64,000 nt of DNA from a virus. The stretch lies in IMG/VR virus record IMGVR_UViG_3300031774_000001; one strand, written 5' to 3'. Made by a program: the position numbers and the translations under genes. How positions within the stretch are numbered: position 1 is the stretch's first letter; every line of letters begins with the position of its first letter. Positions 39,470 to 45,904 of the stretch are shown piece after piece. The notes below the pieces were generated by a model. It did no database searches. It saw only the letters and a list, made by a program, of their open reading frames with translations, and was not told the origin of the DNA.

Positions 39470-40411
39470 ATGGCAATATTTAGAGCAGGTAAACGTATCG
39501 GTAATATGGACATAAGAGTTGGTCTACCGAGAGATAGAACATTAGATAATGTTGAAGGCGATAAAAGATTAAAAAGACAACCTGGAACCAATCCACAAAC
39601 ATCTATTGGTAGATTTGTGTCTGAAATTAATAGAGGCGAAGGTATTGCTAGAGCAAATAGATTTTTAATTAGATTATATCCACCTAAACAAGTTTATTCT
39701 ACTGACTTTGATAGAGTAGATACATTACAATCAAACGATATGATAAAAAATGTTGAGTTGATGTGTACGTCTGTTGCATTACCTCATAGGGATGTATTAA
39801 CAGAAAATTTTGTAACTTATGGTCCAGGTAGAAAAATGCCATATGCATATGGTTATGGATCAAAAATTGAATGTATGTTTATGGGAGATAAGTTTTTAAG
39901 ACAAAGAGCATTTTTTGAAACTTGGCAAGGTAAAATGCATAGTCTTGATACACACAATTTACAATACTATGATAATTACATAGGGTCTATGGAAATTTAT
40001 CAGTTAGGACAATATAGAGAAACAGACCAAGATACAGGCTATAGTGATAACTATAGATTGACTTATGGTGTAAGATTGCACGAAGTATATCCAGAAACAA
40101 TTGGAGAGATACAGTATCAATCACTAACAGATGATCCAATACCTATGGACATACCTATAAGTTTTGCATTTAGAACTTGGGAGAATATAACATTAGACGC
40201 ATTAAATAATGTTAAATTTGGACAAGGAGTACCAGATATGCCTAACATTAAACCTGCTAAGAACTATGGTATATTTGGAGGCATATTAGGTAAAATGCCA
40301 CCAGAGATTAAAAGAGCAAGTAAACAAGTTATTGAGAAAATTAGAAGAGATATTCCAATTGGTAAGAGTACAGGAGGCAGGGTATATCCACCATTTGTGA
40401 TAAATAAGTAA
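39470..40411 (+). CDS. Tail-tube-like baseplate protein (gp54-like)
   Basis: ARANRF, C.SV.LP, FFE.W, YYDNY, EVYP; T4-like synteny. Confidence 0.75.
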   Translation: MAIFRAGKRIGNMDIRVGLPRDRTLDNVEGDKRLKRQPGTNPQTSIGRFVSEINRGEGIARANRFLIRLYPPKQVYSTDFDRVDTLQSNDMIKNVELMCTSVALPHRDVLTENFVTYGPGRKMPYAYGYGSKIECMFMGDKFLRQRAFFETWQGKMHSLDTHNLQYYDNYIGSMEIYQLGQYRETDQDTGYSDNYRLTYGVRLHEVYPETIGEIQYQSLTDDPIPMDIPISFAFRTWENITLDALNNVKFGQGVPDMPNIKPAKNYGIFGGILGKMPPEIKRASKQVIEKIRRDIPIGKSTGGRVYPPFVINK

Positions 40412-40432: not shown

Positions 40433-41173
40433 ATGGCATTGCCTATATTAGAAACAGCGACATATGAATTGACATTACCATCTAAAGATGTTAAAGTGAA
40501 ATTCAGACCTTTCCTTGTAAAAGAGGAAAAGATATTGCTACAAGCATTAGAGTCAGATAACAATAAAGAAATGGTTACGGCTTTAAAACAAATAGTACAC
40601 GCTTGTACTTTTGGTTCTGTAGATATCAATACACTACCTATATTTGATGTAGAGTATATATTTTTACAGATAAGGTCAAAATCAGTTGGTGAAATAACAA
40701 AACTTAAATTGTTATGTCCTGATGATAAGAAAACTTATGCAGAAGTAGAAATTGATTTATCTAAAGTGGAAGTCCACGTAGATGAAGACCATACTAATAA
40801 TATTGTGGTTGATGAGGATAAAAAGATAGGGTTGATTATGAGTTATCCTACCATTAATTCCGTTGATCCTGAAAATGTTGGTAAAAAGAATATGAAAACC
40901 AAGCAGATGTTTGAATTGCTAGCCAATTCAGTATATCAAGTGTATGAAGGCGACAAAATACACGCTGTTGGTGATTATACTAAAGCAGAATTGCATAAAT
41001 TTTTAGAGAGTTTAGACAGTAAAGCATACAAGAAAATCAATGATTTCTTTGATAGTATGCCTAAACTTAAGCAAGACGTAGAATTAGAGAATCCTAAAAC
41101 GAAAGTTAAGACAACGCTTACGTTATCTGGATTACAGGATTTTTTCGTATTGCCCTCTCTCACGAATCGTTAG
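40433..41173 (+). CDS. 26: Baseplate hub assembly protein gp26
   Basis: MALP, RPFLVKEEK.LL, FDVEYIFLQIR.KSVGE, FFDSMPKL, GLQDFF. Confidence 0.9.
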   Translation: MALPILETATYELTLPSKDVKVKFRPFLVKEEKILLQALESDNNKEMVTALKQIVHACTFGSVDINTLPIFDVEYIFLQIRSKSVGEITKLKLLCPDDKKTYAEVEIDLSKVEVHVDEDHTNNIVVDEDKKIGLIMSYPTINSVDPENVGKKNMKTKQMFELLANSVYQVYEGDKIHAVGDYTKAELHKFLESLDSKAYKKINDFFDSMPKLKQDVELENPKTKVKTTLTLSGLQDFFVLPSLTNR

Positions 41174-41340
41174 AGAATTATTATCAGGTGAATTTTGCAT
41201 TAATGCAACATCATAAATATTCATTGACTGAATTGGAGAATATGGTGCCTTGGGAGAGGGAAATATATGTGAATTTGTTATCCAATCATATCAAAGAAGA
41301 AAATGATAGGATTAGGTTAAAGAATGCAGGACAAAAATAA
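41140..41340 (+). CDS. 51: Baseplate hub assembly catalyst gp51 (probably reached by -1 frameshift from gp26; first ATG 41203)
   Basis: LENYYQVNFALMQHHKYSLTELENMVPWEREIYV in the -1 frame; not in the ORF track. Confidence 0.8.
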   Translation, partial: FFRIALSHESLENYYQVNFALMQHHKYSLTELENMVPWEREIYVNLLSNHIKEENDRIRLKNAGQK

Positions 41341-42443: not shown

Positions 42444-43520
42444 ATGAAACTTAATTTTAAAAAGAATATTCAAAATATCATTGGTGTTTTGATGTTAGCC
42501 GCTGTGTTATTAGCAGTTGCTTTTACTAGTAATAGTAATAAAGGTTCAAAAGTTGTAGTAGAAAAAGAAATAGGTTTACTTCAACAAGTGAAAGAGAGAG
42601 GATATATTATATGTGGAGTTAATGCTAACTTACCAGGATTTTCTGCTCAAGACGAGAGTGGAACTTGGAGTGGTTTAGATGTTGATTTCTGTAAGGCAGT
42701 ATCCGCTGCTATATTTGGTGACTCAAGTAAAGTAGAATTTGTAGGATTAAATGCTGCTCAAAGATTTCCAACATTAGCGTCAGGTAATATTGATGTACTT
42801 GCAAGAAACACAACGTGGACAATCAGTCGTGATGTTAACTTGATGTTTGAATTTGCAGGAGTTAACTATTATGATGGACAAGGGTTTTTAATACCAACAG
42901 AATTAGGAATTAAAAGTGCTAAAGGTTTAGATGGTGCGTTTGTATGTATTACAAAAGAAACTACAAGTGAATTAAATCTAAATGATTATTTTGCAGAAAA
43001 CAATATGGCATATAGACCAATATATGTTGAAGGTAATAAAGAAGCAAAAGCAAAACTATTTGGTGGTGAGTGTGATGTATTCACAACAGACGCCTCTGGT
43101 TTAGCAAGTGCTAGGTCTGGTGCAGAAGATCCAAGTAAATGGATGGTATTACCAGAAATTATATCTAAAGAACCTTTAGGTCCACTTGTAAGACAAGGCG
43201 ACCAAGAGTGGGAAGATGTAATTAGATGGACACATTTTATTATGGTTAATGCTGAAGAAGCAGGTATCACTAGTAAAAATGTTGATGAAATGTTAACTGC
43301 TAAATCAAAAGAAGTTAAAAGAATATTAGGTGTTGAAGGTTATATCGGTCCTATGTTAGGGTTAGGTATGAAATTTGGTTATAACATTATCAAACAAGTA
43401 GGAAACTATGGTGAATCATTTGAGAGAAATGTAGGACCTAATACTCCACTTGCATTAGAACGAGGATTAAATAATCTTTGGAAGAACGGTGGCGTAATGT
43501 ACGTACCACCTATTAGATAG
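42444..43520 (+). CDS. aapJ: General L-amino-acid ABC transporter substrate-binding protein (AapJ/BztA family)
   Basis: G.DVDFC.AV.AA, RNTTWT.SRD, YYDGQGF, TDAS.L, ISKEPLGP.VRQGD, VGNYGE.FERN, YVPPIR. Confidence 0.92.
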   Translation: MKLNFKKNIQNIIGVLMLAAVLLAVAFTSNSNKGSKVVVEKEIGLLQQVKERGYIICGVNANLPGFSAQDESGTWSGLDVDFCKAVSAAIFGDSSKVEFVGLNAAQRFPTLASGNIDVLARNTTWTISRDVNLMFEFAGVNYYDGQGFLIPTELGIKSAKGLDGAFVCITKETTSELNLNDYFAENNMAYRPIYVEGNKEAKAKLFGGECDVFTTDASGLASARSGAEDPSKWMVLPEIISKEPLGPLVRQGDQEWEDVIRWTHFIMVNAEEAGITSKNVDEMLTAKSKEVKRILGVEGYIGPMLGLGMKFGYNIIKQVGNYGESFERNVGPNTPLALERGLNNLWKNGGVMYVPPIR

Positions 43521-44014: not shown

Positions 44015-45904
44015 ATGGCAGAATCTATGGTAGTTGCCGACAACGTAGAGTTGGTCGCTAATAATATACAGAATAAAGTTGGTGCAACATTGCTTGGTAC
44101 TAGAGCAATGGCAGAAGACACTACTAAAGAAGTTAGTGAAACATCTATAGGTGTATTAGACCAGATTAAAACTTTTCAAGAGGCAACTGTTCAAAAAGTA
44201 CACGCTGTTTGGGAAATATTAAAATCACAATTAGATTTACAAAAAGACGCTGAACGTAGAGCAAGGGAAAATGAAAAAGAACTTGCCCTTGAAAGAGGTG
44301 GTGCAGGTGGTGGCGCAGGCACACTTACTGGTCTTAAAGGTGCAGTTGATGACGCAGGAGAAGGTTTTGGTTCAAGATTAAAAGACCAATTACTAGGTGC
44401 AGGTACAGCTTTATTTACTATGGCAGGATTAAAATCCTTTGCAGGTAAGATATTCAAAGCAGGTTTGTTTTTAATGTTGGCTGATTTGGCAGGTGACGCT
44501 TTAATTGACCATTTTGATGTAGAAGACCCTGCTGTTAAAGAACAAATTAAATTAGGATTACCAACTGCTGCTGTTTTATTTGGATTATTAAAATTTAGAA
44601 CTGCTATTATGGCAATAATACCTGCTATGGTTGCTATGGCATTATGGTCTCTTACAGATTTTATAACAGGTGATAAAGTTGCCGCTGAATATAATGGTTT
44701 TGATTGGGGTAAAGTTGCATTAACAGGTCCAGCATTATTGTTAACTGCTAAAATGTTTGGATTACTTGGTACTGCTGCTGGTGGTGCATTAACTATTGGT
44801 GGTTTAATAGTGGGTTGGCCTGTTGTTATTGCCGCTTCATTAGCAATTGCATTAGCGGCTGGTATGGGATATTTAACTAGTAAAGTTGGTCAAACTCAAC
44901 AATTAATGTTAGACCATTTAGAAGATATACATAAACTCACGCAAGATGAATTTAATAGAAGATTAGTAGAAGAAAAATCTAAATTTTTACAAAGATTAAG
45001 TCCTGCATTATATAAATGGTTTGGTGGAGATACTACTATGCTACAAGAAGTTGAAGGTGCTACAGAAGCAATGGCAGACAAAGCTGAATCTAAAGAAGGA
45101 AAAGTTTCTAAAAAAGAAGTAGACGATACTTTGGCAACAGGTGATAAATTACTTATGTCAATGGCCTCAGCAGAATTTAAAGAAGAGGCAATGTATGATG
45201 AACACAAATTAGATTATATAAGAGAAATTGCTACAAATTTATTGAGAACAGCTGCGTCAGGTAAAGTATCGCAAGAAGACGCAGACGCAATGACACTTCA
45301 AGCTAAATCAATGTTTGACCAAGTTGAGGTATTAGCGGCAGAAATATATCAAGAAAAAGGAAAAGACGCCCCTAAACATATAAGAAAAATAGCTCTTAAA
45401 GAAGACTATAAAGGTATGAGTATTGATCCTTTGGAAAGAGACCGAGAGCATAAACTTAAAATGGCTGATTTAGAAAATATTAAATCAGCTCACGAAGCAG
45501 AAATAGCGAGATTGGATGCATTAAAAGAAGATTCTCCTGACGAATATGGAAAAGAAGAAAAAGCAAAACATAAAGTAGCTGTAAAAGCATTATCAGGAAT
45601 TGAATCAGAAATACGACAATTACGACATAACAGAATCTTTTCAGATGAAGATAAATTGACAATAGACAAATTATATCAAATAATTTCACCAGAGTTAGGG
45701 TCACAATTGTTGGAAGAAGGATTAAAAGATAAAAAAGTTAATTTAAAAGATATCAATAAGTTAATTCAAGAAAAAAGTGAATCAAAATTTAAAGACCAAA
45801 TGCATTGGTCACAAAAGGTAAGCAATGTAAAAGCTGATACTATTGCAGTTGGCATTCATAACAAAGGTGTAAAAATTGACAATACAGATTTTAGGATTAA
45901 TTAA
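44015..45904 (+). CDS. Tape-measure/baseplate hub-like protein (gp29 position)
   Basis: Long helical protein with Gly/Ala-rich hydrophobic middle, downstream of gp26/51. Confidence 0.55.
   Translation: MAESMVVADNVELVANNIQNKVGATLLGTRAMAEDTTKEVSETSIGVLDQIKTFQEATVQKVHAVWEILKSQLDLQKDAERRARENEKELALERGGAGGGAGTLTGLKGAVDDAGEGFGSRLKDQLLGAGTALFTMAGLKSFAGKIFKAGLFLMLADLAGDALIDHFDVEDPAVKEQIKLGLPTAAVLFGLLKFRTAIMAIIPAMVAMALWSLTDFITGDKVAAEYNGFDWGKVALTGPALLLTAKMFGLLGTAAGGALTIGGLIVGWPVVIAASLAIALAAGMGYLTSKVGQTQQLMLDHLEDIHKLTQDEFNRRLVEEKSKFLQRLSPALYKWFGGDTTMLQEVEGATEAMADKAESKEGKVSKKEVDDTLATGDKLLMSMASAEFKEEAMYDEHKLDYIREIATNLLRTAASGKVSQEDADAMTLQAKSMFDQVEVLAAEIYQEKGKDAPKHIRKIALKEDYKGMSIDPLERDREHKLKMADLENIKSAHEAEIARLDALKEDSPDEYGKEEKAKHKVAVKALSGIESEIRQLRHNRIFSDEDKLTIDKLYQIISPELGSQLLEEGLKDKKVNLKDINKLIQEKSESKFKDQMHWSQKVSNVKADTIAVGIHNKGVKIDNTDFRIN

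Follow-up and report, generated by a model that had tools for sequence, protein, structure and literature searches.

A probable programmed −1 frameshift joins gp26- and gp51-like coding sequences in a pelagiphage-like T4-type myovirus

The window analysed here is a 64,000-nucleotide stretch of viral DNA with a G+C content of 31%, whose sequence identifies it as coming from an uncultured pelagiphage-like T4-type myovirus related to Pelagibacter phage Mosig. Mosig is the closest record (72% nucleotide identity over 96% of the query), followed by Methylophilales Melnitz phages and marine cyanomyoviruses. The upstream neighbour at the locus is a tail-tube-family gene (39470–40411, plus strand) whose product resembles the gp54/gp48 baseplate tube initiator; it matches phrog_45 'tail tube' (E 1.3e-22), and the orthologue in Mosig carries the annotation 'putative baseplate tail tube initiator'. 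The next gene is a gp26-like open reading frame (40433–41173, plus strand) encoding 246 residues (28.0 kDa), the putative short chaperone form (TAC-N). Residues 9–238 of this product align to positions 2–218 of the 219 in the Pfam profile PF12322 T4_baseplate (E 5.6e-60), and the product also matches the PHROGs profile phrog_150 'baseplate hub' (E 7.9e-63), making it a full-length member of the T4 gp26–gp51 family. Both T4 gp26 and T4 gp51 match these same two profiles. No second gp26/gp51 paralogue was found within the 64-kb window.

Near the end of the gp26-like gene, the zero-frame codons GAT TTT TTC occupy positions 41138–41146, with six T at 41140–41145 and C at 41146. The resulting heptamer T TTT TTC (41140–41146, plus strand) lies in the X XXY YYZ phase with respect to the zero-frame codons, (GA)T TTT TTC, such that both tRNAs can re-pair, as expected for programmed −1 ribosomal frameshifting. 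Runs of six T are by themselves common, with 34 on the plus strand of this window, and the significance of the heptamer rests on its conservation. Past the heptamer, the zero frame adds eight residues (VLPSLTNR) before the TAG at 41171–41173. The −1 frame, which reads ...FFRIALSHESLENYYQVNFALMQHHKYS..., is open from 41110 to a stop at 41338–41340, and from C41146 onwards it encodes a gp51-type C-terminal tail (41146–41340, plus strand; 64 codons and a stop) that begins RIALSHESLENYYQVNFALMQHHKYS... This 64-residue extension matches phrog_634 'baseplate hub assembly catalyst' (E 1.4e-29) as well as the C-terminal tail, positions 236–281, of phrog_150, the profile shared with gp26, and tblastn finds it in 576 phage records. 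The earliest start-like codons in the −1 frame of the window are GTG 41188 and ATG 41203, located 14 and 19 codons past the slip point, respectively, and the list of open reading frames includes a 50-residue one starting at this GTG (41188–41340). An earlier note on this DNA had described an in-phase slippery heptamer at the end of gp26, a zero frame that adds only eight residues after DFF and an open −1 frame with gp51-like residues beginning before any ATG; each of these holds in both position and phase.

Joining the two frames as join(40433..41146,41146..41340), plus strand, gives a predicted long product (TAC-NC) of 302 residues (34.9 kDa). Aligned with gp51 of T4 and of Aeromonas phage Aes012, this virtual fusion is colinear from end to end, and the alignment is unbroken across the junction, where the window reads LQDFF-RIALSHESLENYYQVNF. 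Provided that the shift occurs, the product has the architecture of a gp51-type long form, namely a gp26-like domain followed by a phrog_634 tail of ~50–60 residues.

Genes 26 and 51 of T4 are two distinct genes with divergent transcription, and the same holds for Aes012. A complete PF12322 domain is present in both T4 proteins, spanning residues 1–206 of gp26 and 1–201 of gp51, whereas the phrog_634 tail is found in gp51 only, beyond the PF12322 domain; T4 gp51 thus corresponds to a gp26-like domain plus a tail. The same tail that distinguishes T4 gp51 (249 aa) from gp26 (208 aa) is encoded in the −1 frame of the window. The T4 proteins are, however, separate paralogues with ~20% identity and no T-run, whereas the window has a single gene whose two predicted forms would share an identical N-terminal 238 residues. 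At the homologous junction, which has no T-run in either two-gene phage, T4 gp51 has GAC GTG TTT and Aes012 gp51 has GAT TTG TTT, and the end of T4 gp26 (...GAG TTC TTT GAG...) keeps Phe-Phe by means of non-slippery codons. We note that the product of T4 gene 26 (L005:3803–4429) ends ...GLKEFFELL and so retains the G-L-x-x-F-F motif of the one-gene phages, and that the T4 record annotates an internal-start product, 26', of gene 26.

The comparative set comprises nine isolate-phage loci and 80 IMG/VR loci, with both parts locatable at 88 loci. All 88 have the gp51-like tail in the −1 frame with respect to gp26, and 87 have an in-phase T-run that begins at position 3 of the codon preceding Phe-Phe, this codon being always GAT, AGT or AAT and thus ending in T. 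The run is TTTTTTC at 77 of these 87 loci and TTTTTTT at the other ten, with run lengths of six, seven or eight, and the zero frame ends 0, 1, 2 or 8 codons past the heptamer (one codon in 51/87). The layout, found in pelagiphages and cyanophages, spans Kyanoviridae, Schizotequatrovirus, Emdodecavirus and a Desulfovibrio phage. It thus reaches well past the relatives of the window and is seen in Vibrio phages phi-Grn1 and D479 (Schizotequatrovirus), Sinorhizobium phiM7 (where the site is AAT TTT TTT), the freshwater phage S-CRM01 and Desulfovibrio phage 7757. The earlier note had proposed aligning the junction across marine T4-like phages and had named variable phase, or an independent SD plus start for gp51, as outcomes that would speak against a frameshift. 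The phase is instead constant, and no conserved start codon for the gp51 tail was found among 82 unique junctions. The only relative of the 88 without a T-run, IMGVR_UViG_3300009433_001623 (L028, 2190–2215), has AGT GTT TTC with an intact −1 tail. A variant site resembling the G GTT TTC of T7 gene 10, an error in sequencing and a genome that is defective are all possible readings.

Downstream of the heptamer, the −1 frame bears the marks of protein-coding sequence. Over the 20 codons after the heptamer in 78 unique junctions, the mean column entropy in the −1 frame is 0.84 for first, 0.54 for second and 1.32 for third codon positions. Third positions are the most variable, which is the signature of a protein-coding frame; in most genomes this coding stretch lies beyond the zero-frame stop. 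The motif RIALSH.SLE.Y is conserved in the −1 frame from the first codon after the heptamer. Since no conserved start precedes this motif, ordinary initiation cannot reach it, and the first ATG of the −1 frame in the relatives usually lies 19 codons downstream of the heptamer. Codon choice at the slip site is also distinctive: Phe237 is encoded by TTT in 82 of 82 cases and Phe238 by TTC in 73 of 83, as compared with 79% TTT gene-wide, and the other conserved Phe columns of the gene use both TTT and TTC, with TTT at 65–95%. This choice points to a constraint at the nucleotide level beyond that on the protein. The conservation of phase is not fully independent of that of the Phe-Phe residues.

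A hairpin that the earlier note had placed nine nucleotides past the heptamer is present on the plus strand (TCTCT-C-ACG-AAT-CGT-T-AGAGA, 41156–41176), with stems of five and three base pairs and an AAU loop, and it forms in the centroid fold; it is, however, weak and not conserved. Folded alone, it reaches −5.8 kcal/mol, and its z-scores versus shuffled sequences of −0.72 (64 nt) and −1.3 (40 nt) are not beyond chance. Across 75 unique junctions, RNAalifold predicted no consensus pairs downstream of the heptamer. The best common stem register, columns 14–19 with 33–38, is 67.6% paired, with little covariation and not clearly above slid controls, and folds of the individual downstream sequences have a mean z of −1.27, with 28% of control windows from the same gene folding at least as well. 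No convincing conserved structure downstream of the heptamer thus emerges, and the hairpin in the window is not established as a stimulator; it may be a minor one or incidental. Strong stems are observed at the same place in some relatives, such as P-SSM2 (−15.6 kcal/mol, z −5.7).

On the 5′ side, an SD-like purine element (GAGGG, GGAGG) lies about 10–16 nt upstream of the heptamer (41124–41131 in the window) and overlaps a conserved Gly codon. Its predicted pairing with the anti-SD is at or below −4 kcal/mol in ~50% of unique junctions, compared with 2.4% of background positions in the same genes, and the GAGGG element is ~20-fold enriched over background in the relatives; the element in the window is weak, at −3.1 only. 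The element may simply reflect the conserved Gly codon. It is conceivable, if on balance doubtful, that the signal is dnaX-like, with the GAGGG some 10–12 nt upstream of the heptamer, rather than a downstream structure, as the main stimulator and the Phe-Phe pair imposed on the protein by the signal. Polymerase slippage might, in addition, account for part of the long form. The suggestion that the signal imposes Phe-Phe draws on the presence of Val/Leu-Phe in two-gene phages such as T4 gp51.

A programmed −1 ribosomal frameshift very probably fuses gp26 to the gp51 tail, giving short and long forms of a putative chaperone. A gp26–gp51 fusion by −1 recoding had been put forward in the earlier note, and it draws strong support from the comparative evidence, including the phase (88/88), the T-run (87/88), the codon choice at the slip site, the lack of a T-run in the two-gene phages and the colinearity with T4 gp51. 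Recoding of one kind or another at this junction is very likely. The signal, its phase and conservation, the coding character of the −1 frame and the homology to gp26 and gp51 can be read from the compared sequences. The ribosomal nature of the shift, and an efficiency at which only a minority of ribosomes slip, are what we infer. Most ribosomes would read GAT TTT TTC, add eight further residues and stop at 41171–41173, yielding the 246-residue short form (TAC-N) equivalent to T4 gp26. The minority would slip back by one base with two tRNA-Phe on U UUU UUC and continue with CGU AUU GCC... in the −1 frame to 41340. The slippage would give the 302-residue long form (TAC-NC), built like T4 gp51 and with the junction ...QDFF-RIALSH... 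On the model of lambda G/GT and T4 gp26/gp51, the short and long forms may act together, non-structurally, in assembly of the hub, tape measure and tube.

An identical protein, DFF-RIALSH at its junction, would result if RNA polymerase added one U within the T6 run, producing a fusion mRNA with a single reading frame. Slippage by bacterial RNA polymerase becomes efficient only once a run has about nine or more bases. That the signal is a homopolymer run, reaching T7–T8 in 10/87 relatives, and that the downstream RNA lacks a convincing conserved structure are both compatible with such transcriptional slippage, but slippage should favour longer runs, whereas exactly T6 and C is found in 77/87 (88%), with the C kept against the TTT bias. 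Moreover, the run always begins at codon position 3, as X XXY YYZ demands and as slippage does not require. The paper PMC10274946 takes the alternative mechanism of the 2022 study by Vladimirov et al. to be separate short and long genes and not slippage. We consider polymerase slippage unlikely and the ribosomal −1 shift the most likely mechanism, since T6 and C is held against codon bias and always in phase.

Without any recoding, a separate gp51-like protein of 45–50 residues could be made from GTG 41188 or ATG 41203, or by termination–reinitiation. The 50-residue GTG frame would be available for this, a short 'gp51' frame is annotated in several records and implied by most GenBank annotations, and in S-CRM01 and P-SSM2 an ATG lies no more than four codons from the run. 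However, no start is conserved: the first ATG, GTG or TTG falls at codon 14, 18 or 19, or is absent, in 76/82 unique junctions, the 14–19 residues that precede the first start are themselves conserved as −1 frame protein, and the annotated starts vary among records, with three records annotating nothing there. In addition, T4 has the tail only fused to a gp26-like domain, and a separate small protein would leave the invariant in-phase T-run, as well as its absence in the two-gene phages, unexplained, so we regard this reading as very improbable. It could also be argued that an in-frame gp51-type gene has been broken by a one-base homopolymer indel, either in the genome or in the assembly, given that homopolymers are prone to sequencing error and that the metagenomic relative L028 differs in the run. 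Such an error is effectively refuted by the conservation of the frame offset, which is equal in all 88 independent loci, including finished isolate genomes of four virus lineages.

An AlphaFold2 model of gp26 was generated from a 47-sequence alignment (mean pLDDT 83.8, pTM 0.79) and compared exhaustively with 48,161 representative chains using VIA-align. The top matches, all aligned on model residues 1–95, are 3fgx_B (Z 7.7, rmsd 4.1, 85 aligned), the HK97 tail assembly chaperone gp10 (2ob9_B; Z 7.3, rmsd 3.7, 82 aligned) and B. subtilis YqbN (3klu_A; Z 6.8, rmsd 4.2, 85 aligned). The tool itself describes Z values of this size as middling, but the matches are coherent and cover a whole domain; the hits below the top three have Z 4.9 and 4.2, the latter being unrelated. 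Foldseek found no match to the model in the PDB, and the gp26 profile retrieved nothing from PDB sequences at E < 0.28. The comparison with tail assembly chaperone (TAC) folds that the earlier note had proposed thus places solved chaperones of this kind (2ob9, 3klu) among the best matches to the gp26 N-domain, the model of which displays a TAC fold of the lambda G/GT and HK97 gp10 type. In T4, gp26 and gp51 are classed as hub assembly chaperones; the hub cannot be assembled without gp51, and virions do not contain it (PMC3004832). From the model and from this analogy, we infer that the gp26-like gene is a tail (baseplate-hub) assembly chaperone gene.

The lambda G/GT logic invoked in the earlier note gains support from the shared N-terminus of the two forms, the TAC-like N-domain model and the T4 hub-chaperone literature (PMC3004832). 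As with lambda gpG/gpGT (Xu, Hendrix and Duda, Mol Cell 2004; Levin et al. 1993), there would be short and long forms with a common N-terminus, from a gene that follows a tube-family gene, precedes a candidate tape measure and has a TAC-like N-domain model. Differences from lambda also exist: no sequence similarity is detectable, the N-terminal portion extends over ~240 residues with extra domains beyond the ~90-residue TAC-like fold, and five genes, including that of a substrate-binding protein, lie between the gp26-like gene and the candidate tape measure. The slippery sequences also differ, the lambda heptamer being G GGA AAG and that of the window U UUU UUC. The site of T7 gene 10A/10B (G GUU UUC) is likewise a U-rich Phe-codon slip site ending UUU UUC, but it resides in a capsid gene rather than a chaperone gene and the first half of the heptamer differs; it is cited alongside the T4-like TAC sites in PMC12846349.

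The candidate tape measure (44015–45904, plus strand; 629 aa) is proposed from its position and composition, its central part being hydrophobic and rich in Gly/Ala and its C-terminal half charged. It has no Pfam, PHROG or NCBIfam match, a 24-sequence profile shows no detectable relation to T4 gp29 (hhalign probability 0.5%), and the only tblastn match among phages is a weak N-terminal one to Mosig. The ESM Atlas provides a lead, with a score of 0.91 to a cluster carrying PF25671 T4_Tape_measure; PF25671 itself recognises T4 gp29 but, in five relatives, no large ORF located after gp51. In the relatives, a large unannotated ORF occurs within zero to two genes after gp26/gp51, compared with five intervening ORFs in the window. 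A tape measure is a plausible assignment. The 629-residue tape-measure-like gene of the earlier note does lie downstream, five genes away rather than adjacent; its identity was not corroborated by either the family searches or the gp29 comparison. The 117 metagenome homologues (P0002–P0118) are mostly 621–640 aa despite only 30–45% identity; lengths so uniform are what one would expect of a ruler protein. We also observe, inside the tail-assembly block, a 358-residue ORF (42444–43520, plus strand) that resembles a periplasmic substrate-binding protein and carries a hydrophobic segment at its N-terminus. It follows the gp26/gp51 gene and precedes the candidate tape measure, and the corresponding position in Mosig lacks such an insert.

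A 2022 study by Vladimirov and colleagues reportedly identified the TAC genes of T4-like phages and, to judge from the profile matches of the T4 proteins and from papers that cite it, concerns gp26 and gp51. Vladimirov, Gautam and Davidson (Virology 2022;566:9–15) is cited in PMC12846349 for polyT −1 frameshift signals that T4-like phages carry in their TAC-N genes, and PMC10274946 attributes to it T4-like phages with TAC-N and TAC-NC, some having a short gene plus a long fusion gene. As relayed by these citations, the T4-like TAC arrangement matches that of the window, with a poly-T slip site and short and long forms; the kind of system is thus known and the window locus is a further member, from a phage that was probably not part of the 2022 sample. 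Direct literature searches on a gp26/gp51 frameshift returned nothing relevant; according to the papers citing the 2022 study, the frameshift arrangement in T4-like phages appears to have been published already.

None of the 14 GenBank records inspected contains a joined CDS; the two genes are separate in T4 and Aes012, and the record of Desulfovibrio phage 7757 is unannotated. Several records instead carry a truncated 'gp51' from arbitrary, differing and non-homologous starts, and in Synechococcus phages DSL-LC03 (L092:1207–1376), Sf-CH1b (L093:1207–1383) and S-PRM1 (L094:1207–1392) the 'gp51' tail is left unannotated after 'baseplate hub', as an apparent gap of 170–185 nt. The correct annotation for the window is the joined CDS given above for the long product. 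Since the underlying point was apparently made in 2022, the value of the present analysis is practical and lies in such annotation.

Long-tailed phages as a rule derive both the short and the long tail chaperone from a single gene through frameshifting, and T4 has long been quoted as the exception. The comparison presented here suggests that most T4-type lineages follow the one-gene frameshift rule and that T4 has split the two forms into genes 26 and 51. The contrast between one-gene and two-gene phages also offers a natural system in which to ask what sets the short-to-long chaperone ratio.
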